The notes: generated from the letters alone by a model not told the origin. A stretch of DNA of 17,730 nucleotides from Fidelibacterota bacterium (GCA_002729175.1 PBTS01000076.1:1-17730), one strand, 5' to 3'. Numbered from the stretch's first letter, positions 3,371-17,730 are shown. Numbers and translations are program-made.

Positions 3371-4666
3371 ATGGCAGACTTTTTCGATAAACTTATAGAA
3401 CAAGAACCTTACACCCAGTACACCCTGGATATGTTTTCCAGGAGCGCTGGGAAGGATCACGCTGAAATCGATCAGTTTGATAAATGGCGTCAAATGGTCA
3501 CAGGCGCCAACAAGTACACTTTTGAAGTCTCTCATCTAGCGGCTCAGCGGCCGGAGATCTCGGTTCGTCGGGAGAGCGGCGATGAGTATAATCTCATCAG
3601 CTTTGCCAGCTACAACTATCTAGGTTATTCATATCATCCCGATGTAGTTGATGCCGCAAAAAAAGCACTGGATCTTTACGGATTGGGTGCCACCGGTTCA
3701 CCCCTACTGAATGGCACTTTTGAAATCCACAATGAACTTGAGGATAAGATTGTACAATTCTTTGGACAAAAGGATTATGGTGTATCTCTCTTTTCTTCAG
3801 GTTATGGAGCAAATCTGGGCGTCATCTCAGCTTTCATTCATAAGGGAGATCATGTGGTTCTTGACCGCTCTTCGCATGCCTCGCTTATCGATGGTGCTAT
3901 TCTCTCACAGGGAAAAATCTCTCTCTTCCGTCACAACGATGCTGAATTCCTGGAAAAGGTACTGAAGCGCATCGATTACAAAAATTCTCGAATATTGGTC
4001 TGTTGTGAAGGGGTCTACAGCACGGATGGAGACTACGGAACACTGAAGGATATCATTGAGGTATCCAAGAAATACGGCGCCGCTGTGCTCGTTGATGAAG
4101 CACATTCTCTTCTTGTGGCAGGAGAAAACGGACGGGGTGTCTGCGAAGAACAGAATGTTTTGGCAGATGCTGATATGATCATTGCCACTTTCAGTAAATC
4201 TTTCGGCGGAGTAGGTGGTTGCGTCTATGCAAAAAAGAAAATTACCAACTACATGAATTACTATGCCAGATCTCGCATGTTCTCCTGTGCTCTGGATCCA
4301 GGTGTGACAGGAGGCCTCATCAAATCCATTGAACTTGCCGGAGGCACCGATGGAAGTGAGAGAAGAAAACGGATTATCGATAATGCAGACTATCTTAGAT
4401 CCAAGCTGAAGGGACATGTTGACATCGGCACTTCATCCAGCTGGATTATACCGATTATTTACGGAGATGAAAGACTCACCCTCCCCCTGAGTGATTATCT
4501 TCAGCGAGAAGGGATCGATATTTCACTCATGATGTTCCCGGCGGTACCGAAAAACCGGTCAAGAATCAGGGCTTTTGTTACATCCGAGCACACAAATGAA
4601 CAACTGGACAAGGGTGCAGATATTATTCTCCGTGCTGCTGATAAATACAACTTTTTGATAGGATAA
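3371..4666 (+). CDS. PLP-dependent alpha-oxoamine synthase (serine palmitoyltransferase / 8-amino-7-oxononanoate synthase family)
   Basis: Motifs SYNYLG, GATGSPLLNGT, SGYGAN, HASLIDG, FRHND, EGVYSTDGD, VDEAHS and TFSKSFGGVGG (PLP lysine). YNYLG, DEAHS and TFSKS look more SPT-like than BioF-like. Confidence 0.9.
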   Translation: MADFFDKLIEQEPYTQYTLDMFSRSAGKDHAEIDQFDKWRQMVTGANKYTFEVSHLAAQRPEISVRRESGDEYNLISFASYNYLGYSYHPDVVDAAKKALDLYGLGATGSPLLNGTFEIHNELEDKIVQFFGQKDYGVSLFSSGYGANLGVISAFIHKGDHVVLDRSSHASLIDGAILSQGKISLFRHNDAEFLEKVLKRIDYKNSRILVCCEGVYSTDGDYGTLKDIIEVSKKYGAAVLVDEAHSLLVAGENGRGVCEEQNVLADADMIIATFSKSFGGVGGCVYAKKKITNYMNYYARSRMFSCALDPGVTGGLIKSIELAGGTDGSERRKRIIDNADYLRSKLKGHVDIGTSSSWIIPIIYGDERLTLPLSDYLQREGIDISLMMFPAVPKNRSRIRAFVTSEHTNEQLDKGADIILRAADKYNFLIG

Positions 4667-4672
4667 TAGGTC

Positions 4673-5365
4673 ATGAAACATACTCCCGGTGAAGACCTTT
4701 TTGTTTGGGAATTCGATTTTGCACTGACCACTTTCTTCGAAGTGGAGACCGATCTGTTTCAGCAGCACATCCCTTCTCGGCTTAGTCTTATGGAAGTATC
4801 TCCGGGTGTAGGACTGGTAAATATTACCGCCTTCAATTTCCCTGAGGGTGCTCTTGGTGAACTTCCCGAGTTCCAGGAGCTTATTTTCAGTGCCATCGTT
4901 TCGCCTGATCTTTCTCGGGGAGTACCAAAGTTTGCTATGTATGTCCTTTCACTCGGTAGCACCTGCCAGGAACATTTAGATCACAGTGCTGATTATTACA
5001 AGCTTCCCATACATGGACTGCTTACCGACACTAAAATCGATTCAGAAGCAATCGCTATTGATTATTCAGACAGTGACGGTCAGATCCTGGCTATGAACAA
5101 CTGCTCACCCACTACCAATTTCAGGGATGAGGAAAGATACTTTCAGGCGTTTACTTCAGATGGTGACAATCTCACTATTGCAGACTGTTATATCGAAGCT
5201 CAACTCTTTGAGCATCAGTTGACTGAGGATGCAGGAAAATTGAATGTGCACCCTTTCCTGAAGAACATTGATTTCGATCTTGGGGATCCCCTCCCCTATC
5301 TACAGATGATTGGCCAGCCTGGGAAGACCGGAAAACAGTTCTACTACCGTCCAACCTCTTTCTAA
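4673..5365 (+). CDS. Hypothetical protein, possibly acetoacetate decarboxylase/DUF2071-like fold
   Basis: 230 aa ORF starting 6 nt after the oxoamine synthase. The pattern (IPSRLSL...GVGLVNITAF...EFQELIFSAIV...MYVLSL...YYKLP) resembles ADC/DUF2071 proteins; the family call is tentative. Confidence 0.6.
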   Translation: MKHTPGEDLFVWEFDFALTTFFEVETDLFQQHIPSRLSLMEVSPGVGLVNITAFNFPEGALGELPEFQELIFSAIVSPDLSRGVPKFAMYVLSLGSTCQEHLDHSADYYKLPIHGLLTDTKIDSEAIAIDYSDSDGQILAMNNCSPTTNFRDEERYFQAFTSDGDNLTIADCYIEAQLFEHQLTEDAGKLNVHPFLKNIDFDLGDPLPYLQMIGQPGKTGKQFYYRPTSF

Positions 5366-5429
5366 ATAACTCCCAATTGGTCAATTTAGTTTTAATTGCT
5401 ACAGGCCATAGTATTAGATAAACAATATA

Positions 5430-6359
5430 ATGGATCATAAGAAAAACGCTCTTAATGCAATAGGAAACACCCCTCTTGTCCGTTTAAAAAAGGTTGTTCC
5501 CAGTCACTCAGCTGAGGTTTGGGTAAAACTCGAAGGGGGTAATCCTACTGGTTCATACAAAGATCGTATGGCATTATCCGTCCTTACTAGTGCTATTGAA
5601 AGAGGAGAATTATCTCCGGGCGATACTGTAATTGAATACACTGGAGGGAGTACCGGGACAGCATTGGCTTTTGTCTCAGCTGTTCTTGGTCTAAAATTTG
5701 TTGCAGTATTTTCTGATGCATTTTCAAAAAGTAAACAACAGGAAATGGAAGCTTTTGGTGCCGAGGTCACTGTCATAAAAAGTCAAGGTGGAGTTATCAC
5801 ACCAGACTTGATCCAACAAATGAAATTACGGGCTTATGAAATGGCGGAAAAACCTAACACTTACTATGCAGACCAATTTGGATCTCCTGAAGTTCGATCT
5901 GGATACAAGCCTCTGGGTATGGAAATAGCACAGAAACTTGATGGAGAACTTGATCTTTTTTGTTCAGCGGTAGGAACTGGGGCTGCCTTGATGGGATCTT
6001 ATGACGGTCTGTTAGAATCACATGTACAAGTAGACCTAGTAGCATTTGAGCCTTTGCAATCCCCATTTCTTACAACAGGGAAAGGCGGACCCCATCTTGT
6101 TGAGGGAATTGGTGTAGGATTTGAACCTCCATTTCTGGACCGATCTAAGTTAAAAGAAATTAGAGCAATTGATCAAGAACACGCTTTCAAAATGTGCCAA
6201 CGTCTAGCCAGAAAAGAAGGAATATTTTGTGGAGGATCAACTGGTTTGAATGTTGTAGCAGCAATCGAGCTTGCAAAAGAAATTGGACCCGGCAAACGGA
6301 TAGTCACTCTTGGTTGCGACAATGGGATGAAATATCTCGGTAGCCATATATATATGTAA
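5430..6359 (+). CDS. Cysteine synthase family PLP-dependent enzyme (CysK/CysM-like, atypical substrate loop)
   Basis: IGNTPLVRL, KLEGGNPTGSYKDR (PLP lysine), VGTG, EGIG, ARKEGIFCGGSTG and CDNGMKYL. The canonical EPTSGNTG reads EYTGGSTG. Confidence 0.9.
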   Translation: MDHKKNALNAIGNTPLVRLKKVVPSHSAEVWVKLEGGNPTGSYKDRMALSVLTSAIERGELSPGDTVIEYTGGSTGTALAFVSAVLGLKFVAVFSDAFSKSKQQEMEAFGAEVTVIKSQGGVITPDLIQQMKLRAYEMAEKPNTYYADQFGSPEVRSGYKPLGMEIAQKLDGELDLFCSAVGTGAALMGSYDGLLESHVQVDLVAFEPLQSPFLTTGKGGPHLVEGIGVGFEPPFLDRSKLKEIRAIDQEHAFKMCQRLARKEGIFCGGSTGLNVVAAIELAKEIGPGKRIVTLGCDNGMKYLGSHIYM

Positions 6360-6441
6360 AGATGTAATTCGAGTAGTGGTCTGGTTTCCTTTATTTCTGG
6401 AAATTATTTCCATCCAATATTTTTTGTTTATTTGAACCTCA

Positions 6442-6500
6442 GTGGGTACTTCTTTCATCCCGACCGTCCCCCCGTCACATATCAGGTTGAGATTGGGAAA
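6442..6500. repeat. Dispersed intergenic repeat, copy 1
   Basis: GTGGGTACTTCTTTCATCCCGACCGTCCCCCCGTCACATATCAGGTTGAGATTGGGAAA; aligns by eye with the copies at 10881, 11183, 12453 and 13115. Confidence 0.9.
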
Positions 6501-6580
6501 GAGGATGACCGATATGAGTCCGGAATACCAGATAAAAGTTTCTAATAAATATTAAGTTGTTTCTTTTGAGGGTTGTTGTC

Positions 6581-7954
6581 TTATGAATAGTCCAGCCCGA
6601 ATCCACTCAATTTCTTTTTGCATCCTTCATACAGGTCCAGGTATTTCTGCATCGGCTGCACCGTTTCCATATCGTAGCATTCATCGAACCGCTTGCCAAG
6701 AGGCGCATCGGATATCCGCGATTCGTACAAATCCAAAAGTCGCTTCACGATTTCGTTGGCGTGAGTCCGTGTCATACCCTGCCGGGCTGCAAGATGCCCT
6801 GCTTCCGCTCCGATGCGCGCCTCCATTCCTGTTGCCCGTTCCGGATGACGATTGCTTGCCACGGCCACCAGATTCAAATCTCCACCAGACACAGTGGATG
6901 CCAAAACATTGGCCACAATCTCGTAGACCACCATCTCGGTACATGGCCCGGCTGCGGCGAAAGGACTGATGGTAACCAGGAGATGGGTATTTCGGCTCAA
7001 AGCCTGTGTAGCGATGCTGATCAGCCACAGAAGCTCCCGCGTGGTATTGCAGAAGTGGTGGATATGCAGCGGGAAGCAGCAGTGCCACTGCGCCTCAAAC
7101 GCGAGCAACCCCAGGAAATGGTGCGCCACAAGCACCACGGCCGTCGATTCCGGTCCGCCGGCATACCCGCCCATCAACGGTCCGTACAGCCCGTACTTGT
7201 TGTGTCCGCTGTTCCGAAGAAACGCGACCTTTTTCACACGTTCATAGTCTATCTTCAACTCGGATATAGCAGCGATGGCCAGTCCGTCATTCGGCAGCAC
7301 GCCGAAGTCAGCCTGAACAGCGGCGAGGATGGCATCGGTCTGTTCAGCATTGGAAACCAGATTATGAATTCCGATCCCGGGCCGTCCGGCTGCCTTGGCC
7401 GCCTCCCGCAGTTTAATTACGTTCCAGATAGCGGCCTCTACCTCCTGGGGGGTCCCCGACTTGATGGGGCGACCATGAACGGTCTGGCTAAAAGCGCTGG
7501 AAAAGGTGTCGGCCAGGGGTTCCTGGGCGAAACTTTGTACCATAGGAACAAACCGCTCTTCGGCCACCGGTGCACCGACGGGTGTGCATAGACAAAACGG
7601 CGGCCGAGTGTCCTCGATACTCCGGCAGGCCATCACCGCCAGATCCTTTCCCTGTCCGTAGGTCACGGTGGTTGGGGCATGTTTCAGCGCCTGTTCCACT
7701 TCCTTGCGGGTAAATTTCAAAACACGACCTGTATCCCGGCAGAACATGCCCAGCTCCAAAAACAGATCGAGACCTGCCTGGTACACCCGATCCACCAGAT
7801 CCTCATCGGAAGGGACTACCTGCTCCGGATCATACCGGATGTCATACCGCTCGACGATCTCGCGGGCGGTCTGCGCCACTTTCCAGTCAAATTCCTCTTC
7901 TTTCACAAGCGTCCCGCTTTCGCTGCGACCGATCACATCCCAGAAACTGATCAT
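6581..7954 (-). CDS. mtmB: Monomethylamine:corrinoid methyltransferase family protein (MtmB homologue 1, non-pyrrolysine)
   Basis: 457 aa. MtmB motifs AGRPG.G, ELKID, GGYAGG, AGPCTEM and TGMEAR, with C-terminal GKRFDECYD. His197 (CAT at 7366-7364) occupies the Pyl position. Confidence 0.9.
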   Translation of the reverse strand: MISFWDVIGRSESGTLVKEEEFDWKVAQTAREIVERYDIRYDPEQVVPSDEDLVDRVYQAGLDLFLELGMFCRDTGRVLKFTRKEVEQALKHAPTTVTYGQGKDLAVMACRSIEDTRPPFCLCTPVGAPVAEERFVPMVQSFAQEPLADTFSSAFSQTVHGRPIKSGTPQEVEAAIWNVIKLREAAKAAGRPGIGIHNLVSNAEQTDAILAAVQADFGVLPNDGLAIAAISELKIDYERVKKVAFLRNSGHNKYGLYGPLMGGYAGGPESTAVVLVAHHFLGLLAFEAQWHCCFPLHIHHFCNTTRELLWLISIATQALSRNTHLLVTISPFAAAGPCTEMVVYEIVANVLASTVSGGDLNLVAVASNRHPERATGMEARIGAEAGHLAARQGMTRTHANEIVKRLLDLYESRISDAPLGKRFDECYDMETVQPMQKYLDLYEGCKKKLSGFGLDYS

Positions 7955-8610
7955 GATACCTCACCTCCCCGCTTCTCCTGCATCAGACTTCTGGCAACTT
8001 CTACAGCTTTTGTCGCGTTTTCACCATAGCCGTCAGCGCCGATCTCTGCCGCCCACTCGGCCGTCACCGGTGCGCCGCCGATCATGACACGGTATTTGTC
8101 CCGCAGCCCCAGTTCACCCAGAAGATTGATAAGGTCAGGTTGATAGGTCATGGTGGTGGTCAACAGCGAGGAGGCGCCAATGATATCAGCGCCCAGCTCC
8201 TCCGCCTGCTCCACAAACCGGCGGACAGGTACGTCATAACCCAGATCATGGACCGTAAAACCGTCCGCCTGCAGCATGATTTTTACGATATTTTTACCGA
8301 TTTCATGTACGTCACCCTGGATGGTTCCCAGGATGATGGTGCCCTGGCTTCCGTGCCCCGGGCGCTCCAGAAGAGAGGGTCTGAGTACCTCCATGGCAGC
8401 ACTCACGGCGTTGGCCGAGAGCATTACCTCGGCCAGAAAACATTCCAGAACAGCGAACCTGTCACCGACGACGTGCATCCCTTTTGTATACCCCTCCTGA
8501 ATAGCCTGGACAGGATCTACACCCTCGTCCAGGGCGACCCGGGCAAGGGCCGCGCACTGCTCTTTATCCCCTTTAATCGTGGCTTCCGCCATCTGTTCAA
8601 AGAGATTCAT
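7951..8610 (-). CDS. Corrinoid (B12-binding) protein, MtmC/MtbC/MttC family
   Basis: GTIQGDVHEIGKNIV (DxHxxG), SSLLTTT, MIGGAP and IGADGY; N-terminal cap helices; ATGA overlap with mtmB-1. Confidence 0.95.
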   Translation of the reverse strand: MNLFEQMAEATIKGDKEQCAALARVALDEGVDPVQAIQEGYTKGMHVVGDRFAVLECFLAEVMLSANAVSAAMEVLRPSLLERPGHGSQGTIILGTIQGDVHEIGKNIVKIMLQADGFTVHDLGYDVPVRRFVEQAEELGADIIGASSLLTTTMTYQPDLINLLGELGLRDKYRVMIGGAPVTAEWAAEIGADGYGENATKAVEVARSLMQEKRGGEVS

Positions 8611-8649
8611 CTTTGCGTTTACCTCCAGATGAGGTTTCCGGAGAGACTC

Positions 8650-10029
8650 TTAATACGGAAACGCCACCCCCATGGTGGCTATCTCGTCCTTCACCTTATT
8701 GAACATATCCAGGTACCAGGACATAGGGCGCGAAACGCGTACGTCATAACACTCCTGGAACGGCTTGCCCTTGGGTGCGTCGGCGATCCGGTCTTCGTAT
8801 TTCTCCAACATTTTCAGGGTGATATCGTTTGCCTGCTCCCGGGACATTCCCTGCTGTGCCGCGGCGTGTCCCACCTCACATGCCAGACGCGCTTCTAGCG
8901 GCGTAGCATAGTTACGATATTTGTTGTGCGCTACAGCGGCTTCCCACAGGTGTCCACCGGACACGGTACTGGCAAGTCCGTGGGCTGCCGCCTCCCACAA
9001 CACCATTTCGGTTCCGGAGCCGGCATTCAGGAAGCCGTTAGATGTGGACAGGATGTCACTGTTGCGGCTAACGGCCTGTTGCGTCACACTCACCAGCCAC
9101 AGCATCTCCCGCCCGCTATTGGAGGTGAAGTGAAGATGGAACGGGAAACTCTGCTGGAAATTCGCCTGATAGATGGTCAGTCCAGCCAGGTGATAGGCTG
9201 TTTCCAGAATGGCTGTGCCCTCCGCGCGGCCGGCATAGCCGCCGTAAATAGATCCGCTCAGACAACCGATGAAACACCCGAACTGCATGCAGTGGACCAC
9301 CTTATTTAGCAATTTATTGTCGATCTTCAACTCGGTCAGTGCGCCTATAAGCCGCCCATCGGTGTATCGTACCCCCCACTCATCATTACTTACCGCAACC
9401 TGGCCTGTGTCGGACTGGGCCGTACCCACGGCCACCAGGAACATTCCCGGCTTCCCTGCCAACCTGACCGCCTGCCGCAATCCCATCGCATGTTCCACCA
9501 CCCCGGCCATCTCAGTCGGCGCGCCGGACTTGATTTTGAGTCCCATACTTTCCTCCAAAATCGGCGCACATACGCCGTCGGCCAGCGGCTCCTGGATGTA
9601 GGCAATGGACATCGGTAGAAAAATTTCCTCATCACAGGTGATGTCAGGACTGAAAATACAGAACGGCGGCGCATCGGCCTCCGGCACACGACTCTTCCAC
9701 AGGCGAGCATCCTTCCCCGCGCCAACGATGTAGCGACCGGGAGTGTGATACAGCGCCTCCTGCAGTTCTGAGGCGTCCACCAAAATCCGGCGGTGGGTAT
9801 CCACGTTAAGTACGCCTACCTCTAAAAAAAACTCTACCGCCGCCTGCCAGACACGGTCGGCCAGGTCGTCATCCGCCGGAACGGGCATGTCAGAGTCATA
9901 GACAATGTCGTACTTCTTAATCACCTCCTGCATTTTGGGCATGAAAATCTCATAGGTGAATTCGTCGTCTTCACAGAATGGACCGGAGTTCGCCCGTTCT
10001 ACGATTTCCCACATCTTATACGGTAGCAT
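8650..10029 (-). CDS. mtmB: Monomethylamine:corrinoid methyltransferase family protein (MtmB homologue 2, non-pyrrolysine)
   Basis: 459 aa. AGKPGM, ELKID, GGYAG, AGSGTEM, TPLEAR and GKPFQECYD. Val199 (GTG at 9435-9433) occupies the Pyl position. Confidence 0.9.
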   Translation of the reverse strand: MLPYKMWEIVERANSGPFCEDDEFTYEIFMPKMQEVIKKYDIVYDSDMPVPADDDLADRVWQAAVEFFLEVGVLNVDTHRRILVDASELQEALYHTPGRYIVGAGKDARLWKSRVPEADAPPFCIFSPDITCDEEIFLPMSIAYIQEPLADGVCAPILEESMGLKIKSGAPTEMAGVVEHAMGLRQAVRLAGKPGMFLVAVGTAQSDTGQVAVSNDEWGVRYTDGRLIGALTELKIDNKLLNKVVHCMQFGCFIGCLSGSIYGGYAGRAEGTAILETAYHLAGLTIYQANFQQSFPFHLHFTSNSGREMLWLVSVTQQAVSRNSDILSTSNGFLNAGSGTEMVLWEAAAHGLASTVSGGHLWEAAVAHNKYRNYATPLEARLACEVGHAAAQQGMSREQANDITLKMLEKYEDRIADAPKGKPFQECYDVRVSRPMSWYLDMFNKVKDEIATMGVAFPY

Positions 10030-10678
10030 CGTTTGTCCTTTTCTCTGCCATCACACGCTCCAATATTTCAACCGTCACGCCGGCATTCTCTCCCCAGCTA
10101 TCGGCGCCGCATTCCGTCACCCACGCTTGCGTTACCGGCGCACCGCCGACGATCACGTGGTACTTCTCACGGATCCCCTTCTCCTCAAGGATCTTGACAA
10201 TGTCCTGCTGCCCAGGCATCGTCGTGGTCATCAGTGAGGACACACCGATGATATCGGCTTTCACTTCCTCGGCTTTGCGCACAAAATCCAGAGCGTTGAC
10301 ATCAAATCCCAAATCATATACCTCGAAACCCTGGGCCTTGAGCAGGCAGACCACCACGTTCTTGCCGATCTCATGCACATCGCCTGCGATCGTTCCAATA
10401 ACCATCGTGCCCTTCTTCTGGACGGACATGGCCGATTTCTGAAGCTCCGGCTCCAGTATTTCCATCACCGCCTGCATGGCCCGCGCGGACAGCATCAGTT
10501 CCGGAAGAAAAATTTCCATACGAGCGAACCGTTCCCCAATCTCGCGCATCCCCACAGTCAACGCTTCGATGATCTCCTCCACATCGGTGCCTGCCTGAAC
10601 TATCTGCTCTGCTGAAGTTGCAGCCTCGCCTTCTTTTCCGTCCTGTACAACCTCAACCAGTGATTGTATTGATATCAT
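10016..10678 (-). CDS. Corrinoid (B12-binding) protein, MtmC/MtbC/MttC family
   Basis: GTIAGDVHEIGKNVV, SSLMTTT, IVGGAP and FLPEL; overlaps the start of mtmB-2 by 14 nt. Confidence 0.95.
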   Translation of the reverse strand: MISIQSLVEVVQDGKEGEAATSAEQIVQAGTDVEEIIEALTVGMREIGERFARMEIFLPELMLSARAMQAVMEILEPELQKSAMSVQKKGTMVIGTIAGDVHEIGKNVVVCLLKAQGFEVYDLGFDVNALDFVRKAEEVKADIIGVSSLMTTTMPGQQDIVKILEEKGIREKYHVIVGGAPVTQAWVTECGADSWGENAGVTVEILERVMAEKRTNDATV

Positions 10679-10797
10679 TGTTGCAGTAACCCCTTGTTAC
10701 ATTTGAAAGACCATATATCACTGATCTGGATTTCTAACAGTTCTGTCTTTTCTATAATCATTTTCTATCTATTAATAAAATTAATCTACCATTTGAA

Positions 10798-10821
10798 CCT
10801 TATAAGTAAAAATTTATAAGG
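10798..10821. promoter_or_regulatory. Palindrome CCTTATAA-N8-TTATAAGG, candidate operator
   Basis: Perfect 8-bp inverted repeat about 120 bp upstream of the corrinoid/MtmB operon, in AT-rich intergenic DNA. Confidence 0.35.
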
Positions 10822-10880
10822 ACAATAGATATACCCCGCATCTATGGATAGTCGGGTACGGGGGCTATAGACATAAACTC

Positions 10881-10911
10881 TCACGATGTGGGTGTTTCTT
10901 TGATCCTGACC
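10881..10911. repeat. Dispersed intergenic repeat, copy 2 (short)
   Basis: TCACGATGTGGGTGTTTCTTTGATCCTGACC, 8 nt beyond the DUF2164 stop codon. Confidence 0.8.
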
Positions 10912-10919
10912 ACACCTTA

Positions 10920-11159
10920 TTATAATATTGGTTTTGTCAAAATATAGATCTCATCAATCAAAGTTTCAGTCCTTTCATTAATGAGACTGTGTACATCTGA
11001 AAGTGCCTCATTATAGAAAAATCCTCCAATCTTTTCCGCAAAGAAATCAAGAAGAAATTCAGCATCTAAATTCCCGATTTCCTGGTCAAGATTCTCTCTA
11101 AACCATTCTTGAATTTCTTGAGTGATTTTTACTTTATTTTCTTTGGACAATTTTATCAT
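10920..11159 (-). CDS. DUF2164 family protein, 79 aa
   Basis: Family pattern I.LSKE.K...I..IQ.WF.E.LD.EIG.LDAEFLLDFF.E.IG..FYN.AL.D; GGAGG RBS. Confidence 0.85.
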   Translation of the reverse strand: MIKLSKENKVKITQEIQEWFRENLDQEIGNLDAEFLLDFFAEKIGGFFYNEALSDVHSLINERTETLIDEIYILTKPIL

Positions 11160-11182
11160 GAGTCTACCTCCAAAAAATTATA

Positions 11183-11242
11183 TCACAATGTGGGGCTTCT
11201 TTCATCCCCGACCGTCCCCCCGTCAGTTTCAAGGATGAGATT
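11183..11242. repeat. Dispersed intergenic repeat, copy 3
   Basis: TCACAATGTGGGGCTTCTTTCATCCCCGACCGTCCCCCCGTCAGTTTCAAGGATGAGATT. Confidence 0.9.
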
Positions 11243-11281
11243 TTAGGTTAAGAAGCATCACGTTAAAATTGAATGCATCCC

Positions 11282-12430
11282 TTACTTTATGACCGGTTTG
11301 CCATCTCTGACCCAAATCTGATCCCCCACCGTCACGGTTGCATCGGTAAAAAAGTTCCAGCGGACATAAGGTCGTTCACCACCTACCGCCCCGCCAAGCT
11401 CTGAATTATCGCCCAACGAAAGACGAACGACTCCCGCACCGTAACCATAATAGGGGACCCACGGATTTCGTTCCGGCACCGCCAATTTGGGATTAAAACC
11501 CAGTGCAAACTCTCTGAATCGACGTCCCACATCGCCCGCCTGTTCCATCTCGGCTTCAACATTTTCCTTTCCTGACTTCGCACTGACTTTCACTACAATT
11601 CCATCAACAATCTCAAGCTTGAGACCGATGACCGGACCTCCGTTCCACTGGGATGGTGGAAACGCAATGGTGCCGCGAACAGATTCCTCCAAAGGGGCGA
11701 CACGGACCGCTCCCGCCGGCAGTTCAATTTCCCGGTCAATCAGGATCACACCACGGTCTGTCCGCGCCTTTGACGCATCGCCATCCTGTCTGTTTACCGG
11801 TCGGTCACCAATTCGGAAACGGATATCTGTTCCAAGCGGTGTGGTCACATGCACTTCCCTGTTTCGCATCGCCCGTTCGAAACGGAGCTGAATTTTTGCC
11901 AGCGTGTCATAGTCACTGTTCAGCACAGCCCGCTGGTATAACGCGTCTATGTCCCTCGGTTCGGGCATCGGCTGACCCGGGAGGGGATATGCGCTTCGGT
12001 TTTCCAACCAGTGAAAATGGACTGTGCGGCTCTTACCAGATCTCAATATATCTTGCATTGCGGCATAGGCAGGATGTTGTGGAGTTGCTCCCGGCAGCAT
12101 CACCGACGCATCAATATCTTTGAACATTTTCCGGTACGCTTTTCTGGAAGGTTCCGCGCCGCGCTTGATAACATCCGGATCCAACTCGCTTGATGGAAGA
12201 ACGTCGATCACGCCGAGATCAACCGCTCCCGCTTTCATCACCTCATAACGCAGAGGTGGAATCAGATCGCGGAACATATCCGGATGGGCCACAAACAGAA
12301 CCTTCTCTCCCTGCCCCACCTCCATGCGCTCGACTATCACACGTGCCAACTCCGGCCAGTCCAGTCTTAGGCGCTCTTGGGCAGAGGAAAAGCTGAAAAG
12401 AATAAGCAGTATGGCTAGGGGCTTTTTCAT
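11282..12430 (-). CDS. Secreted peptidase M29 (aminopeptidase T/AmpS)-fold protein with apparently degenerate metal site
   Basis: Signal peptide MKKPLAILLILFSFSSA. M29-type segments VHVTTPLGTDIRF, LPAGAVRVAPLEESVRG, EFALGFNP, LSLGDNSELGG and terminal ATVTVGDQIWVRDGK. Confidence 0.75.
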   Translation of the reverse strand: MKKPLAILLILFSFSSAQERLRLDWPELARVIVERMEVGQGEKVLFVAHPDMFRDLIPPLRYEVMKAGAVDLGVIDVLPSSELDPDVIKRGAEPSRKAYRKMFKDIDASVMLPGATPQHPAYAAMQDILRSGKSRTVHFHWLENRSAYPLPGQPMPEPRDIDALYQRAVLNSDYDTLAKIQLRFERAMRNREVHVTTPLGTDIRFRIGDRPVNRQDGDASKARTDRGVILIDREIELPAGAVRVAPLEESVRGTIAFPPSQWNGGPVIGLKLEIVDGIVVKVSAKSGKENVEAEMEQAGDVGRRFREFALGFNPKLAVPERNPWVPYYGYGAGVVRLSLGDNSELGGAVGGERPYVRWNFFTDATVTVGDQIWVRDGKPVIK

Positions 12431-12452
12431 TTATTTCCTCCAAAAAAATACG

Positions 12453-12517
12453 TCACTATGTAGGTGCTTCTGTCATCCTGATCATCCCCCGTCATTTACC
12501 AGCTTGAGATTGGGAAA
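12453..12517. repeat. Dispersed intergenic repeat, copy 4
   Basis: TCACTATGTAGGTGCTTCTGTCATCCTGATCATCCCCCGTCATTTACCAGCTTGAGATTGGGAAA. Confidence 0.9.
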
Positions 12518-12619
12518 ATGGTTGAGAAAGCTGATGTAAACGCATAATGGGGAAACTACCTCTCTGGAGGCAAACTAAGGAGAGATAGCGGGAAAATCAA
12601 TCAAGGAAGGAAGGTCTAG

Positions 12620-12654
12620 AAACAAAAAAGCCCCTTCCTGGGGCTTTTTTGTTT
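12620..12654. terminator. Rho-independent terminator (bidirectional form)
   Basis: AAACAAAAAAGCCCC-TTCCT-GGGGCTTTTTTGTTT: perfect 15-bp inverted repeat with a GC core and T-tracts on both strands, 21 nt past the stop of the 123-aa gene. Confidence 0.9.
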
Positions 12655-12675
12655 ACAAGTAAGTATATTTTTGAA

Positions 12676-13047
12676 CTACGATTTTCTACTATTTACGAAA
12701 AATAATATAGAAAAAACAAAATTCATTCCCGTGCTAATGAAGTTTGGTGCGGTAGATGGTGATATTCCCACAGCAATGTCATACACTCCCATAACACCAA
12801 ATAGTCCCCAAAAAATCGCAGTTACCATCCCAAAATTTGAGAGATTTTCTCCAGCCCACATTGGGAGAGTCCAATGAAGTGTGGCAAGTGCGGCCATTGC
12901 CATGCCCATATACCTCATTAAAACTCTTAAGTCAGGCGATGAATTCCAGCCAAATGTTTCTTCAACCATCGAAGGTAAGAACCACATTTGCAAAACCCAC
13001 AATACCATGAAACCAGCTGCAAGCTTAAAAATTAATGGTAGGTTCAT
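12676..13047 (-). CDS. Hypothetical integral membrane protein, 123 aa (about 4 TM helices)
   Basis: Four hydrophobic segments; GAGGAG RBS; followed by a terminator. Confidence 0.85.
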   Translation of the reverse strand: MNLPLIFKLAAGFMVLWVLQMWFLPSMVEETFGWNSSPDLRVLMRYMGMAMAALATLHWTLPMWAGENLSNFGMVTAIFWGLFGVMGVYDIAVGISPSTAPNFISTGMNFVFSILFFVNSRKS

Positions 13048-13114
13048 ATTGACTCCTCATTGTTAGTTAATCGATAAATGACTCGAGATTTAATCAAATT
13101 TCAAAATAATTATG

Positions 13115-13143
13115 TCACGATTGGATGCTTCTTTCATCCCGAC
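13115..13143. repeat. Dispersed intergenic repeat, copy 5 (short)
   Basis: TCACGATTGGATGCTTCTTTCATCCCGAC, 12 nt beyond the stop of the 92-aa gene. Confidence 0.85.
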
Positions 13144-13155
13144 AGTTACAAAAGA

Positions 13156-13434
13156 TTATTGTGGTGGTTTCATCTCATTGAGGGTAAAAAATTCATGATA
13201 CTCAATATATGGTTCCACCATTTTTTTAAATTCTGGGTCTGATGCTCGTTCCGCCATCGCTGCCATATCAACATTTTTCATGATTATGATTGCAGTATTA
13301 TCATTAGCCTTCCCATATAGGAAATTACCATTATTTACCTGCTCCTGATTATCTTCATGAGAAAGAAATAAATTTTCCCATGTTTCATAATCACATTTTA
13401 AATGGGCAATTGATGCCATATTTACTTGTTCCAT
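13156..13434 (-). CDS. Hypothetical protein, 92 aa (possibly a small dimeric alpha/beta-barrel-like fold)
   Basis: GAGGA RBS and a protein-like sequence (CDYETWENLF...YGKANDNTAIII...); the fold suggestion is tentative. Confidence 0.75.
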   Translation of the reverse strand: MEQVNMASIAHLKCDYETWENLFLSHEDNQEQVNNGNFLYGKANDNTAIIIMKNVDMAAMAERASDPEFKKMVEPYIEYHEFFTLNEMKPPQ

Positions 13435-13522
13435 GTTTTTATCCTCTACCTTATCATTATTTTGATAAAAAGGAAAATTAGATTATTAAAATTTCCCCTT
13501 CATGTGCCATAAGGAGTTTATA

Positions 13523-13666
13523 ATGGCTGAAGTCTATTATAGCTACGGCATTACCACGCAAATTGCGTCAATCAGAGGCAGGAGGGTGATTATTTCAGGA
13601 ATAAGGGAAGTAGTGGTAGCTAATCAGGAAGTACAGTTACGAAAAAGCCTTAATTATTCCCAATAG
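13523..13666 (+). CDS. Possible small ORF, 47 aa
   Basis: AAGGAG 6 nt before the ATG: MAEVYYSYGITTQIASIRGRRVIISGIREVVVANQEVQLRKSLNYSQ*. No recognisable family. Confidence 0.3.
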   Translation: MAEVYYSYGITTQIASIRGRRVIISGIREVVVANQEVQLRKSLNYSQ

Positions 13667-13750
13667 TCAAAACATATCCTACCCATATAGTAGGGGTCAT
13701 GTCACACCAGGCCGCTGGTTTGAGTAGCTATTACACTTCAGATAAATATC

Positions 13751-15181
13751 TTAATCACTCACTATATCTTCATATTTCGCAATAATTGCATCGCCCTTTT
13801 CAATAAGGTCATTTGCAATCGGCTCAACCTGGTGCGTATCTAATATGCCCTTCACTATTTTATTGGCTTCAGCAGGCAGTTCCTGCTCGTCCATTTCCAG
13901 CAGGTCAAATTTTCCTCTTTCCCAGGATGAGAGTTCGCCTCTAAGATATTTCAGAGTGTGGGGATGCATCAGGAAGTCACGTCCATGCCCAACTTCTTTA
14001 ACAGCATCCAAACCTATCTTCTCTTCTGATATTTCTACTTCATTCATATAATTTTTGGAGCAATCCCACATATAGGAATCGACAATAAACTGTTCAAAAG
14101 AGATTCCTTTAGCGGAATCAACACACCCATAACCGGTAGCGAGGTCCGAGCCGCCCATTATCCCTGCAAGTTGACTAAAAGGCGTGAACAATCCTGAAAC
14201 GCTGGCTTCTATCCCGTCACCCCATCCGCCATCAGCAACAAGAGATGGCAGGTTGTATTTTTTTGCCATTTGTGCTGCCCCAATACATAAATAGATCTTT
14301 TCAGGCGTATCATAATCTATGCTACCTGTTGCCATATTCATTGGCCCTGACTCGGAACAATAAATGTGGGGTGCACCAGGCGCCGCTATCTGTGAGATTA
14401 CAATACTTCCCAGGTTTTCAGTGTTGATATTTACCAACATTCCCGCTACTGGAAGAGGACAAGTTGCACCACCATTTGACATGGACATGGAAGCGACGGG
14501 GATTCCGGCTTTTGCCAGTTCTACCTGCGCTTCAATGGAGCCTTGCTCATAGGTCAATGGTGCGATAGGGCATATAATTACGGAAAAGAGGGGTCGTCTT
14601 TTTAATTCTTCTTTTCCGCCTGCTATAAGAGCTGCCAGCTCAATCTGCACCTTTGCAATTTCAGAACTTTGCGCTGTAACGCCTTGAACATGCTTGGAAG
14701 TATTCAGCATGGTCGTCCACAATTCATGGGGACCATGGGCAAGAGGTGAAACATCTGTTGCGGTTAATGCTGTCCAGAGAAAATCAAGTGAATCAACTGC
14801 ATCTCCAAGTCTTGTAAACGCAGCAATATCCTTTCTGGTGGAATTACGATACTCTCCAGTTTCATAATCTTTAACAAAAACTGCAAGTCCGCTGGTAGTC
14901 ATCCACGGATATGTTTTAGTAGGAACTTTTAGATCATGCTTCGGATCGCGGGCGCACAGTGTGAACTCTTTTTGAACGCTTTCAAGAGCCTGGTCAACAA
15001 TCATTTCAGGAATTTTGGCAACCATCGCATTATAATCCACACTCGCTCCATTCTTCTCAAGCAATTCAAGAATAGGCTTGCTGAGAACTTTAATACCAAT
15101 TTCCTGCAGGCTTTTTATACTTTGAGCATGAATCAGATTCATCTCTTGTTGGTATAAAAAAACTGTTTTTGCCTTGGCCAT
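13751..15181 (-). CDS. mttB: Trimethylamine methyltransferase (MttB) superfamily protein, non-pyrrolysine
   Basis: 476 aa. IH..S...L.EIG, LCARDP, NTSKHV, PIAPL, GATCP.PVAG, Q.AAPGAP, AAQMAKKYNLP, SFEQFIVD and VGHG.DFL.HPHT. No amber codon; the Pyl region reads LPSLVADGGW. Confidence 0.92.
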   Translation of the reverse strand: MAKAKTVFLYQQEMNLIHAQSIKSLQEIGIKVLSKPILELLEKNGASVDYNAMVAKIPEMIVDQALESVQKEFTLCARDPKHDLKVPTKTYPWMTTSGLAVFVKDYETGEYRNSTRKDIAAFTRLGDAVDSLDFLWTALTATDVSPLAHGPHELWTTMLNTSKHVQGVTAQSSEIAKVQIELAALIAGGKEELKRRPLFSVIICPIAPLTYEQGSIEAQVELAKAGIPVASMSMSNGGATCPLPVAGMLVNINTENLGSIVISQIAAPGAPHIYCSESGPMNMATGSIDYDTPEKIYLCIGAAQMAKKYNLPSLVADGGWGDGIEASVSGLFTPFSQLAGIMGGSDLATGYGCVDSAKGISFEQFIVDSYMWDCSKNYMNEVEISEEKIGLDAVKEVGHGRDFLMHPHTLKYLRGELSSWERGKFDLLEMDEQELPAEANKIVKGILDTHQVEPIANDLIEKGDAIIAKYEDIVSD

Positions 15182-15242
15182 TTTTATACCTCCATGAAAT
15201 TTGTCCAGATTGGGTTCTCCATATCAGAACAGCAAAAATATT

Positions 15243-15380
15243 TTAAAAAGCATCCACAAGCACTATGATATTAGGCGAAAATCCCGGATCTATTATCATG
15301 CATTCTTGTGCTTGGGACGATTCTGTCAGCACACAACAATTTGTTTCAAAATCACCAAGTACTAAACGTTCAATTTCCAC
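15243..15380 (-). pseudogene. 5' stub of an MBL-fold metallo-hydrolase (glyoxalase II-like)
   Basis: AGGAG RBS and GTG start: MEIERLVLGDFETNCCVLTESSQAQECMIIDPGFSPNIIVLVDAF*. Matches the typical N-terminus (..LG.FETNC..., IIDPG) but ends before HxHxDH. Confidence 0.75.
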
Positions 15381-15408
15381 GATTACTCCTATACTGTTTC
15401 AAATCCAT

Positions 15409-15519
15409 TTACCCGGCAAGAATGTCACCGGTACTTGGGTTTTCCACGCCTAAGTAGCCGGTGTTTTCTGCTCCTCACCATGGACCGTTAACGTAATTCT
15501 TGACATTTGTTAAACTCAC
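15409..15519 (-). pseudogene. 5' stub of an aldehyde dehydrogenase
   Basis: GTG start: MSLTNVKNYVNGPW*GAENTGYLGVENPSTGDILAG*. This is the typical ALDH N-terminus (NYVNG.W...V.NP.TGE.LA), with an internal TGA at 15477-15475 and truncation after 36 codons. Confidence 0.75.
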
Positions 15520-15562
15520 AATAATTCCCTTCTTCTATGAGTGCATACACCTAACAGACTGT

Positions 15563-16936
15563 TTAAAACTTGAATCGGACACCTAATTCCCCTAATTCCG
15601 CTTTGATTTTTTTATACAATTGTTTGTATTCCAGAATTGGCTGTTTTGTTTTCATATTCCAACACTGTTCATAGGTTTTGCCATTTGGCGCATTTGGAAT
15701 ATCATCTTCATATTTTGCCAATAATTTTTTAACAATCTCATTTCCTTGTGAACGAGTCATCCCGATTACACCATGCGCAATTTCCGAAGCCCATTTTGGT
15801 TCCATCGGCGTGAAATGATCAACTTCAACGGCCTTTGCAACACCTCCAAATTCTATAGATGCTCCGGAAACAACAGCGTTTATCACAACCGCTGCGATTT
15901 CATACAGGCACATTTCCGTCATCGGACCGGCTGCCACATAATTAAGAATAAAGAAGGGGAAATGACTGTTTCTGCTAATAGCCTGTGCACTAGCGCTATT
16001 GGCCCATATAACAGCCCTATCACTTGTGCATCCATGATTGACATGAATTGGAAATGTGAGTTGACAAGAACCTTTCATTAAGAGTATAGAATTAAGATGG
16101 TAAGCAACATTAGTTACAGCAGTTCCTTCCGGCCCGCCACAATAACCACCTAAAATGGGTGCGGATTCTGCAACTATATGACCTCCTAAATTCATAACAA
16201 AAGCAATCTCATTTAATCTTTCAAAATTAATCTTCATCTCCGCTATAGTACCGATTAACCAACCATCAGTTGGTCTAAGGCCAAATTGACTTCCTGCAAT
16301 TTTAGCCGTATCCGAACCTGCAGAAGCTATTGCATTCATAATAGGCAGACCCGCACGGCCACCTTTTCGCAAAGCTGACCTGGCTAAAGTACTGGATCGC
16401 ATGCAGGCTAGGATTTCCAAAGGACTTTTGGTACGAACAAGTCTTCCTTCAATATACTTAATCGTCGGAGTGGTGATGGAATCGGCCAATGGAAGAAATG
16501 ATGCATAGGCCTCTAAAATACTTTCAAATAGCGTTTCATTGGACACGGCTGCTCCACCAGCTCCTATAAAGCACCACGGATCAATATCGCTTTCGGGCTT
16601 ACGAGCTACCAGAGCCTTGGCATCACTTCCTTCGCCAAATACCGGTCGACTAGTAGCTTCGGCCAAACCTTCCAGAATTTCTTCCTCGGTAAATTTTATT
16701 ATACGTTCTGTATCGACACAGTAAATTCCTACATTGGCAAATAGATCTATTCCTGCCTTAAAAACTCTGTCTGCTAAATCGTCATCACAGGACAAAGGAT
16801 TTTCAGGATCATACTTAATTTCATATTTTTTTATTAATTCCCTTAGCTTTGGAACAAAGATATTTAAATCAAAGTCTTTTTCAGAAGTGAAGGGCCCTTC
16901 CAATGCCCTATCTATGATTTCTATAAGATTTACCAA
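15563..16936 (-). CDS. mtmB: Monomethylamine:corrinoid methyltransferase family protein (MtmB homologue 3, non-pyrrolysine)
   Basis: 457 aa, TTG start. GGRAGL, EMKIN, GGYCGG, AGPMTEMC, GVAKA, TPME and GKTYEQCW. Met200 (ATG at 16339-16337) occupies the Pyl position. Confidence 0.9.
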   Translation of the reverse strand: MVNLIEIIDRALEGPFTSEKDFDLNIFVPKLRELIKKYEIKYDPENPLSCDDDLADRVFKAGIDLFANVGIYCVDTERIIKFTEEEILEGLAEATSRPVFGEGSDAKALVARKPESDIDPWCFIGAGGAAVSNETLFESILEAYASFLPLADSITTPTIKYIEGRLVRTKSPLEILACMRSSTLARSALRKGGRAGLPIMNAIASAGSDTAKIAGSQFGLRPTDGWLIGTIAEMKINFERLNEIAFVMNLGGHIVAESAPILGGYCGGPEGTAVTNVAYHLNSILLMKGSCQLTFPIHVNHGCTSDRAVIWANSASAQAISRNSHFPFFILNYVAAGPMTEMCLYEIAAVVINAVVSGASIEFGGVAKAVEVDHFTPMEPKWASEIAHGVIGMTRSQGNEIVKKLLAKYEDDIPNAPNGKTYEQCWNMKTKQPILEYKQLYKKIKAELGELGVRFKF

Positions 16937-16948
16937 ATTTTTATATCC

Positions 16949-17620
16949 TTATGATTTTTGTTTTTTTGATAAAAATTCTAAAGCAAGTGCAACTGCTCTT
17001 TCAGCGTTTTCCCCATATATATCAGCTCCAATCTCATCAGCCCATTTTTGGGAAGTTGGGGCTCCGCCTATCATAACTAAATATTTTTCTCTTTGGCCTA
17101 TTTCTTTTAGAATGTCGATAAGATCTTTCTGGGATGCCATAGTAGTAGTCAAGAGCGATGACAAGGCTATAATATCAGCATCAACCCTACCAGCTTCCTC
17201 TATAAAAGTAGAAGTGGATACATCTTCACCGATATTGTGGACATTAAATCCCGCTGTTTCTAACATAATAGCAACAATATCTTTGCCGATTTTGTGTATG
17301 TCACCTTTAACTGTGCCAATCAGAACAGTACCTTTATTGAGACTTTTGCTTTTATCTGAACTGTCCGATAAAATATGAGGTTTTAAGATAGCCATTGCTG
17401 AAGTGAATGCTCCCGCAGCCATCATAAGTTCTGGTAAAAAAATTTCAAGTTTGTTGAATTTCTCTCCTACAACTTCCATCCCCTTTGACAAACCGTTCTC
17501 GATACCCTCCAAAGGACTATAATTTTCCTTAATAAGCAGCGTGGCAGCATCTTTACCTTTTTGCACATCCATCTCTACAACGCAATCGAACAGGTCTTTA
17601 AAAATATCCTCTTTATTCAT
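16949..17620 (-). CDS. Corrinoid (B12-binding) protein, MtmC/MtbC/MttC family
   Basis: GTVKGDIHKIGKDIV, SSLLTTT, MIGGAP and FLPEL. Start moved from 17638 (TTG) to the ATG at 17620 because AAGGAG lies just upstream of it. Confidence 0.95.
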   Translation of the reverse strand: MNKEDIFKDLFDCVVEMDVQKGKDAATLLIKENYSPLEGIENGLSKGMEVVGEKFNKLEIFLPELMMAAGAFTSAMAILKPHILSDSSDKSKSLNKGTVLIGTVKGDIHKIGKDIVAIMLETAGFNVHNIGEDVSTSTFIEEAGRVDADIIALSSLLTTTMASQKDLIDILKEIGQREKYLVMIGGAPTSQKWADEIGADIYGENAERAVALALEFLSKKQKS

Positions 17621-17655: not shown

Positions 17656-17730
17656 TTAAAGTTCAAGAACATTTCTCTCCCGCTTAAAAGGAACATCTCC
17701 CGGATCAGGTTCATCAAACTCACGGGCAAA
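17656..17730 (-). CDS. 3' end of a probable trimethylamine/dimethylamine/histamine dehydrogenase-like flavoenzyme (Old Yellow Enzyme family)
   Basis: The frame from the window edge reads FAREFDEPDPGDVPFKRERNVLEL*. This resembles the recalled C-terminal pattern A.E.(D/E)....(V/I)P(F/Y)(K/R)RE of TMADH and histamine dehydrogenase. Only 24 residues are visible. Confidence 0.6.
   Translation of the reverse strand, partial: FAREFDEPDPGDVPFKRERNVLEL

Follow-up and report, generated by a model that had tools for sequence, protein, structure and literature searches.

How does a bacterium that is not a methanogen come to carry three MtmB-family methyltransferases that lack pyrrolysine (Pyl), and what would it use them for? 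The question is raised by a 17,730-nucleotide stretch of DNA from a Fidelibacterota bacterium (GCA_002729175.1 PBTS01000076.1:1-17730; hereafter the window), on the minus strand of which three genes of this family each lie beside a gene for a corrinoid protein. The window is the entire contig C82 of a 1.83-Mb genome (87 contigs; 93% complete, 7% contamination) and terminates inside the gene upstream of the third pair. Our preferred reading, to which we assign a probability of about 0.48, is that these genes form part of a methyl-scavenging kit which would feed methionine synthesis from N-methylhistidines and N-methyl-beta-alanine. Below we describe the enzymes, their origin, their candidate substrates and the likely fate of the methyl group.

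Three MtmB homologues without pyrrolysine

The three pairs are arranged as follows; B1 to B3 and C1 to C3 denote the MtmB and corrinoid genes, and GC the guanine-plus-cytosine fraction.

6581 to 7954, minus strand: MtmB1, methyltransferase of the MtmB family, non-Pyl, His197 in the Pyl column (Pfam profile, alignment, predicted structure)
7951 to 8610, minus strand: corrinoid protein C1, overlapping the mtmB1 start, both B12-binding domains
8650 to 10029, minus strand: MtmB2, non-Pyl, Val199 at the Pyl column (Pfam profile, alignment)
10016 to 10678, minus strand: corrinoid protein C2, whose gene opens the C2-B2-C1-B1 module (GC 0.54-0.57)
15563 to 16936, minus strand: MtmB3, non-Pyl, Met200 at the Pyl column (Pfam profile, alignment)
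16949 to 17620, minus strand: corrinoid protein C3, GC 0.37, both B12-binding domains

An earlier note on this DNA, made from the sequence alone, had described three intact pairs with His, Val and Met in the place of pyrrolysine, and this description holds. All six open reading frames (ORFs) are uninterrupted, a HMMER alignment to Methanosarcina barkeri MtmB (1L2Q/1TV2) sets H, V and M opposite O202 with the motif free of gaps, and His197, Val199 and Met200 share one column in an L-INS-i alignment of 144 proteins, which was used for the residue column where a faster alignment had moved MtmB2 by one position. The profile search and structure prediction that the note had suggested likewise bear out the family assignment: all three proteins match the Pfam MtmB profile PF05369 over their full length (380, 314 and 333 bits for MtmB1, MtmB2 and MtmB3; gathering cut-off 25), and the AlphaFold model of MtmB1, the only one of the three modelled (pLDDT 96.6), shows the MtmB TIM-barrel fold (TM 0.95, rmsd 1.5 to 1NTH). 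An ESM Atlas search returned the MtmB family as its sole match. C1, C2 and C3 each contain two B12-binding domains and the DxHxxG cobalamin motif.

A Pyl-dependent MtmB is recognised by an in-frame amber codon read as pyrrolysine at 202, and none of the three genes has one. The 93% complete genome yielded no PylS above cut-off (best 34 bits vs 178) and no tRNA-Pyl, in a check that did not extend to pylBCD. By homology, the three MtmB are B12-dependent substrate:corrinoid methyltransferases without pyrrolysine rather than Pyl-MtmB, and family and fold make it very probable that they demethylate an N-methylated compound and load the methyl group on the Co(I) corrinoid of their partner.

Each of the three stands for a clade of its own. 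At 60% or more identity the Pyl-column residue is His in 153/153 relatives of MtmB1, Val in 106/109 of MtmB2 and Met in 49/49 of MtmB3, and the pocket residues differ between the three clades while being fixed inside each. The equivalent of Glu229 is gone from all three; that of Glu259 is present in MtmB3 only, which also retains the equivalent of Tyr335; an amine-binding role is ascribed to both of these residues.

Rarity of the arrangement is not borne out. Nineteen different residues occupy the Pyl column among 132 full-length 50%-cluster representatives (from the best 150 returned), and missing pyrrolysine is the rule among full-length members of the family; gene callers cut amber-containing genes, which therefore drop out of a full-length set. 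Multiple copies are also common: nine donor-type genomes, chosen because each held one MtmB copy, gave 1-7 matches in eight cases and two or more in seven, none with internal stops.

Two modules in a species-specific island

The host belongs to the Marinimicrobia/Marinisomatota (SAR406), judging from the NCBI names of cluster members; Marinimicrobia labels occur on members of the clusters of B1, B2, C2, the window's MttB gene and its FecR gene. These labels speak against a chimeric contig or mis-binned sediment DNA, an explanation for which the swing in GC across the window (0.36 to 0.58) and the 7% contamination could be cited and which we consider close to negligible: the left part of the window is 93-96% identical to congeners, and over 11.5-12.2 kb two metagenome contigs of independent origin (L054 and L076) run colinear with the window at 99.7%. 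Since the same arrangement recurs at this identity on independent contigs, the island is real and species-level. The MtmB family was found in 0/40 relatives and in 0/400 other Marinisomatota genomes searched, congeners included, and the note's placement of pyrrolysine-free methyltransferases in an accessory region of a non-methanogen stands, the region being specific to the species. Elsewhere in the phylum the MttB family occurs in 48/251 genomes and the RACo family in 54/251. No paper on MtmB in Marinimicrobia was found in the open-access literature, and the accessible text of one candidate (PMC8318568) makes no mention of mtmB.

The distinct relatives of the B1/B2 and B3 genes imply at least two acquisitions. 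The nearest relatives of MtmB1, at 77-81% identity, are in Anaerolineae and Desulfobacterales; MtmB2 reaches 86% (85% to an Anaerolineae protein), and B1 and B2 (GC 0.56) lie in the same order in an Anaerolineae locus (L019). At the nucleotide level MtmB3 (GC 0.40) is 92% identical to the metagenome loci L056, L057 and L086, and it clusters at 90% with proteins from Aminicenantes and Thermodesulfobacteriota. What the note had taken for a single battery is, as far as relatedness can tell, a region of two horizontally acquired modules from sediment anaerobes, C2-B2-C1-B1 and B3/MttB. The three MtmB are 36-40% identical to one another, and their tandem or local duplication is ruled out by a constraint test on 36 hand-chosen sequences, the group being defined before the tree was viewed (p-AU 6e-6 for a single clade).

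The second module includes three features which the note had overlooked.

13751 to 15181, minus strand: methyltransferase of the MttB superfamily, non-Pyl, the Pyl column being occupied by Gly319 or Trp320 and the frame free of stops
15415 to 15519, minus strand: pseudogene stump of a CoA-acylating (methyl)malonate-semialdehyde dehydrogenase (MMSDH), first 35 codons, internal stop
17659 to 17730, minus strand: histamine/trimethylamine-dehydrogenase-family flavoprotein, of which the contig end leaves the last 24 codons

The MttB protein matches PF06253 with 209 bits and stays below the cut-off of the Pyl equivalog TIGR02369 (354 vs 525). Its orthologues, 79-90% identical, accompany MtmB3 in eight other loci, placed after B3, and neither in the window nor in the close B3 loci does it have a corrinoid gene of its own. 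The flavoprotein gene, complete (693 amino acids) in the near-identical locus L076, precedes C3. The dehydrogenase stump is 77% identical to the intact gene of L056, where the gene order is C3-B3-dehydrogenase-aminotransferase-MttB as against C3-B3-stump-MttB in the window, and L019 has hutH between B2 and C1 where the window has a gap of 40 bp. From these comparisons the acquired operons appear pruned in the host, the skeleton-degrading genes being lost or never received and the methyltransferases kept. The locus records gene flow from sediment anaerobes to a marine SAR406 population, with operons trimmed to their methyl-transfer genes.

The modules are bordered by copies of an island repeat of 50-90 nucleotides, for which no strand is assigned.

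6431 to 6512: island repeat copy, downstream border of the B1/B2 module
10870 to 10918: partial copy, upstream border of the B1/B2 module
11167 to 11258 and 12437 to 12528: copies between the borders of the two modules
13100 to 13151: partial copy, downstream of the B3/MttB module

The repeat has 18 matches on eight contigs (the window and C59, C71, C28, C58, C49, C63 and C11) and parts gene blocks of unlike GC; at the corresponding site of a congener a copy is present beside different cargo. Rfam gave no match for the repeat and no S-adenosylmethionine (SAM) or cobalamin riboswitch near the modules (gathering threshold, five sources).

Outside the modules, positions 739-2979 encode a 746-amino-acid protein that has a FecR domain at its N terminus, an acidic linker and matches in 14/14 relatives searched. 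A BioF/serine-palmitoyltransferase-like gene and a 230-amino-acid protein without Pfam or NCBIfam match (3371-5365) form a pair that is kept in congeners and a sister genus; the sister genus has a 3067-amino-acid ORF near the island site (L133, G004 C19, 8427-17630).

Does the host use these genes? They might be recent, strain-variable cargo that is decaying like the dehydrogenase stump. The absence of MtmB from all 400 other genomes of the phylum would fit this, as would the 92% identity that MtmB3 still shares with its relatives and the pseudogene beside it. Moreover, contigs assembled from RNA libraries leave the reference at 6452, 12432 and 17643 in two or three studies, loose ends from which it follows that natural strains vary in the cassettes they carry. 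Yet the seven methyl-transfer genes are all intact, although the intervening breakdown genes have disappeared; sequences of B1, B2, C1 and C2 were found again on 152-168 contigs; and at synonymous sites B1 and B2 have diverged far from their closest relatives (pS 0.62-0.66) at a low dN/dS, values of dN/dS to nearest relatives being 0.06-0.26 with the donor branch included. Part of the region is present in 17 runs on record as RNA. In four of the four studies mapped, library contigs reach 25-29 of 30 bins; a single contig extends over 6635-10763, from C2 to B1, and those of three studies end at 10730-10763, just upstream of C2, while 12940-13421 is uncovered in all four runs. The extent from C2 to B1 fits an operon transcript, and the contigs are compatible with DNA carry-over as well. 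On balance we regard unused cargo as clearly unlikely.

Candidate substrates

The earlier note had left the substrates unknown; the donor neighbourhoods point to methylated histidine and methylated beta-alanine as candidates. For MtmB2, relatives were sampled from 351 genomes (the class of an Anaerolineae genome) and 301 genomes (the order of a Desulfobacteraceae genome), and 13/14 and 20/32 of the B2-type matches, respectively, were compared; the remainder were already included or short-flanked, and the choice was made before neighbours were inspected. The B1 and B2 locus sets share one contig, and three distant B1 matches were omitted. The histidine-utilisation (hut) genes hutH, hutU or formiminotransferase occur in 12/33 MtmB2-clade loci (2/13 in Anaerolineae, 10/20 in Desulfobacterales), in 5/33 MtmB1-clade loci and in 0/72 MtmB3-clade loci; about 0.17 would be predicted by a rough chance estimate. 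Three hut neighbours tested are canonical hutH or hutU, above profile cut-offs. The hut-linked B1/B2 loci are further accompanied by MttB genes, importers for polar amino acids and a molybdoenzyme. This last, of the DMSO-reductase family, is present in 15/33 B2 and 13/33 B1 loci, together with polar amino-acid ABC importers and a HutC-like regulator (L221-L240, L016-L043).

A demethylase that feeds a standard hut pathway would fit a methylated histidine, and we somewhat favour N-methylated histidine, as Npi-methylhistidine or mono- or dimethyl-N-alpha-histidine, as the substrate of MtmB2; for MtmB1 the same is possible, though less sure. The preference for Npi- or N-alpha-methyl forms arises because Ntau-methylhistidine is cited as a direct substrate of a histidine ammonia-lyase in a paper on a Geobacillus lyase; in its accessible text, that lyase was tried on 1- and 3-methylhistidine and the active analogue reported for the wild type is the methyl ester only (PMC11432326). 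Ergothionase was considered for the lyase of L019 and rejected, the protein scoring 404-421 bits as histidine ammonia-lyase against 247 as ergothionase. The donor-locus molybdoenzyme was likewise considered as an ergothioneine desulfurase and set aside; its likeness to acetylene hydratase, an enzyme to which a module of ergothioneine synthase is reported to be related (PMC9516567), is loose.

The neighbours of MtmB3 are of another kind. MMSDH or a class-III aminotransferase occurs in 26/72 MtmB3 loci, many of them short, and in 0/66 B1/B2 loci, and three of these MMSDHs, when tested, pass TIGR01722. MMSDH and class-III aminotransferase together convert beta-alanine or beta-aminoisobutyrate to an acyl-CoA, and a methylated beta-alanine-type amine is therefore the simplest substrate to propose. 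That MttB and MtmB3 act on it in series is a tentative suggestion from gene context. No report of corrinoid demethylation of methylhistidine or beta-alanine betaine was found in the open-access literature, as judged by titles and the openings of abstracts.

Two sets of alternative substrates have to be weighed here. The earlier note's remark that no substrate is established for non-Pyl MtmB is out of date: among more than 1,000 catalogued non-Pyl proteins of the family one has a demonstrated substrate (PMC13044021). This is MtqB of Methanococcoides methylutens Q3c (2026), which demethylates choline, tetramethylammonium and, weakly, monomethylamine; a tree of 1,061 sequences in the same text places it in a clade branching near Pyl-MtmB (PMC13044021). 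The window's enzymes might act likewise, or as classical MtmB on simple methylamines, and the flavoprotein gene upstream of C3, of the trimethylamine-dehydrogenase (TMADH) family, and the Glu259 and Tyr335 equivalents of MtmB3 could be taken in support. That flavoprotein, however, scores higher as histamine dehydrogenase (729 bits) than as TMADH (549), no choline or betaine transporter family is among the annotated recurrent neighbours, and the three MtmB are 2.5-3.2 substitutions/site from the clade with post-amber fragments, Methanomassiliicoccales proteins and a Methanohalobium non-Pyl MtmB, the last of which served as proxy for MtqB, whose own sequence is absent from the tree. Membership in the MtqB clade seems unlikely, judged by distance to the proxy, and we hold choline or simple methylamines to be a very improbable answer. 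Among the proteins compared, no 459-amino-acid protein fits the listed mass of MtqB, and the representative nearest to Pyl-MtmB did not retrieve it; four Methanomassiliicoccales-type proteins in the Pyl-like branch (P0515, P0516, P0520 and P0523) have Lys or His at the Pyl column. The three MtmB belong to subclades for which no characterised member could be found.

Other N-methyl heterocycles or amines, such as methylated purines or pyrimidines or N-methylated polyamines, or enzymes running in the methylating direction, seem more improbable still. Aldehyde:ferredoxin oxidoreductase, present in 15 of the B3 loci, and saccharopine-dehydrogenase-like genes, present in 9, would fit polyamine catabolism upstream of beta-alanine, but no purine-breakdown family is prominent among the recurrent neighbours, and neighbours that are catabolic and import genes favour demethylation.

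Methyl acceptor and comparison with known systems

A cassette elsewhere in the genome (L006, G000 C46, 1965-7444) encodes an MttB, a stand-alone homocysteine methyltransferase that retains its three zinc cysteines, the reductive activator RACo, a DUF1638 protein and a corrinoid protein; it is kept at 54-86% in 5/5 other Marinisomatota checked, and its RACo is the one copy in the genome. In its make-up the cassette is similar to the Mtg system of Ruegeria minus MtgD. For a second methyltransferase the candidates are of two kinds, homocysteine methyltransferases (contigs C46 and C36) and a URO-D/MtaA-like protein (C86); the latter lies with a corrinoid protein at 4145-5916 (L007, G000 C86) and has homologues near B2 in three Anaerolineae loci. 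The only stand-alone acceptor methyltransferases identified as such are those for homocysteine. In 7/13 Anaerolineae B2 loci a stand-alone homocysteine methyltransferase is present, divergent from C2-B2 in six. A link to mercury methylation through hgcA was also considered and dropped, PF03599 not being found in the genome.

From these genes we consider homocysteine, giving methionine, a somewhat probable acceptor in the host. The first methyltransferase (MT1) would transfer a methyl group from an N-methylated compound to the Co(I) corrinoid of its partner protein, the corrinoid would be reactivated by the RACo/DUF1638 pair on C46, and the methyl group would pass to homocysteine via the stand-alone methyltransferase of C46. 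MtmB2, and less surely MtmB1, would demethylate an N-methylated histidine, in the case of mono- or dimethyl-N-alpha-histidine one from ergothioneine or ovothiol breakdown, and the freed histidine would enter the host's own hut pathway, for which it has hutH, hutU and formiminotransferase homologues; MttB and then MtmB3 would act in series on a methylated beta-alanine-type amine. With the methyltransferases kept and the skeleton genes lost or never received, the kit would work as methyl scavenging and not as an energy pathway.

The same enzymes and substrates could instead serve tetrahydrofolate-dependent one-carbon oxidation, or histidine release as a source of carbon and nitrogen with methionine as a by-product. 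The host's hutH, hutU and formiminotransferase homologues, FolD and the pterin domain inside MetH would suit such a role, the other carriers of the C46 cassette possess MetF, and a genome in 87 contigs with the window cut in the upstream gene leaves room for missing genes. Against this, neither a stand-alone pterin-binding methyltransferase nor CdhD, Fhs, MetF or MetE was found in the 93% complete genome, CdhD, Fhs and MetF being markers of Wood-Ljungdahl methylotrophy; the site beside which a congener has metF is assembled here and gives no match; and the breakdown genes of the beta-alanine type are deleted. We judge this alternative unlikely.

Several observations weigh against methyl scavenging itself, beyond the limits on dN/dS and RNA contigs given above. 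The gene neighbourhoods describe donors and not the host; no hut gene lies in the available sequence of 21/33 B2 and 28/33 B1 loci; the 10 hut-linked Desulfobacterales loci are probably one ancestral cluster and not independent; and since Ntau-methylhistidine is reported as a direct lyase substrate, not every methylhistidine needs demethylation first. The actual donor may never have had hutH between B2 and C1. The seven B2 loci where a homocysteine methyltransferase is present belong to relatives at 64-67%, and none is seen in those at 80-85%; the host carries a full MetH; and no importer arrived with the modules. Finally, MetF is patchy, being present in 5/14 family genomes and in 5/5 other carriers of the C46 cassette, so that its absence here may be incompleteness; the argument that scavenging is forced by a lack of MetF is weakened accordingly.

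If the proposed substrates are correct, methylhistidines and beta-alanine betaine would have an oxygen-independent fate; the locus would also bear on what replaces pyrrolysine in the MtmB pocket. It offers three intact enzymes with their partners and specific substrate predictions from two donor phyla. In its fullest version, the reading makes MtmB2 and MtmB1 the first methylhistidine demethylases to depend on cobalamin, has beta-alanine betaine stripped step by step by MttB with MtmB3, brings the enzymes from sediment anaerobes into a repeat-bounded cassette array with the skeleton genes cut away, and ends in a folate-independent route from corrinoid to homocysteine. The host would then take methyl groups in seawater from N-methyl compounds of animals and algae, and do so with no Wood-Ljungdahl pathway. 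This version is rather unlikely to hold in every part.

Of the known systems, M. barkeri MtmB/MtmC (1NTH, 1L2Q, 1TV2) shares the fold (TM 0.95), about 31% identity, the GRPG-type motif and a cognate corrinoid protein; the window's three differ in having no pyrrolysine, no Pyl machinery found and no Glu229 equivalent. MtqB/MtqC is likewise a non-Pyl MtmB-family enzyme of about 459 amino acids beside its own corrinoid protein, but belongs to an archaeal methanogen with coenzyme M as acceptor and other neighbourhoods, in a clade near Pyl-MtmB from which the window's three are far off (PMC13044021). 'Ca. Formimonas warabiya' DCMF is described as having a bacterial non-Pyl MtmB of unassigned function, in an organism that is a Wood-Ljungdahl fermenter (PMC9768040). 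One DCMF protein, which may or may not be the dichloromethane-induced one of that paper, is 59% identical to MtmB2. A precedent for joining betaine demethylation to methionine is MtgB-MtgC-MtgE of Ruegeria: Ruegeria pomeroyi MtgBCDE and the Phaeobacter split methionine synthase likewise lead, in marine heterotrophs, from N-demethylation to methionine via a corrinoid protein, and share a stand-alone homocysteine-binding module, RamA and DUF1638, whereas glycine betaine serves as donor, the MT1 is of MttB type and the system cannot do without its pterin module MtgD (PMC12478193). In the present host the MT1s are mostly of MtmB type with dedicated corrinoid proteins, no MtgD was found and MetH is full. 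The present system belongs, as a variant, to the three-component corrinoid methyltransferases already known; new are its host, the pruning of the operons, homocysteine as the likely acceptor and the substrate predictions.

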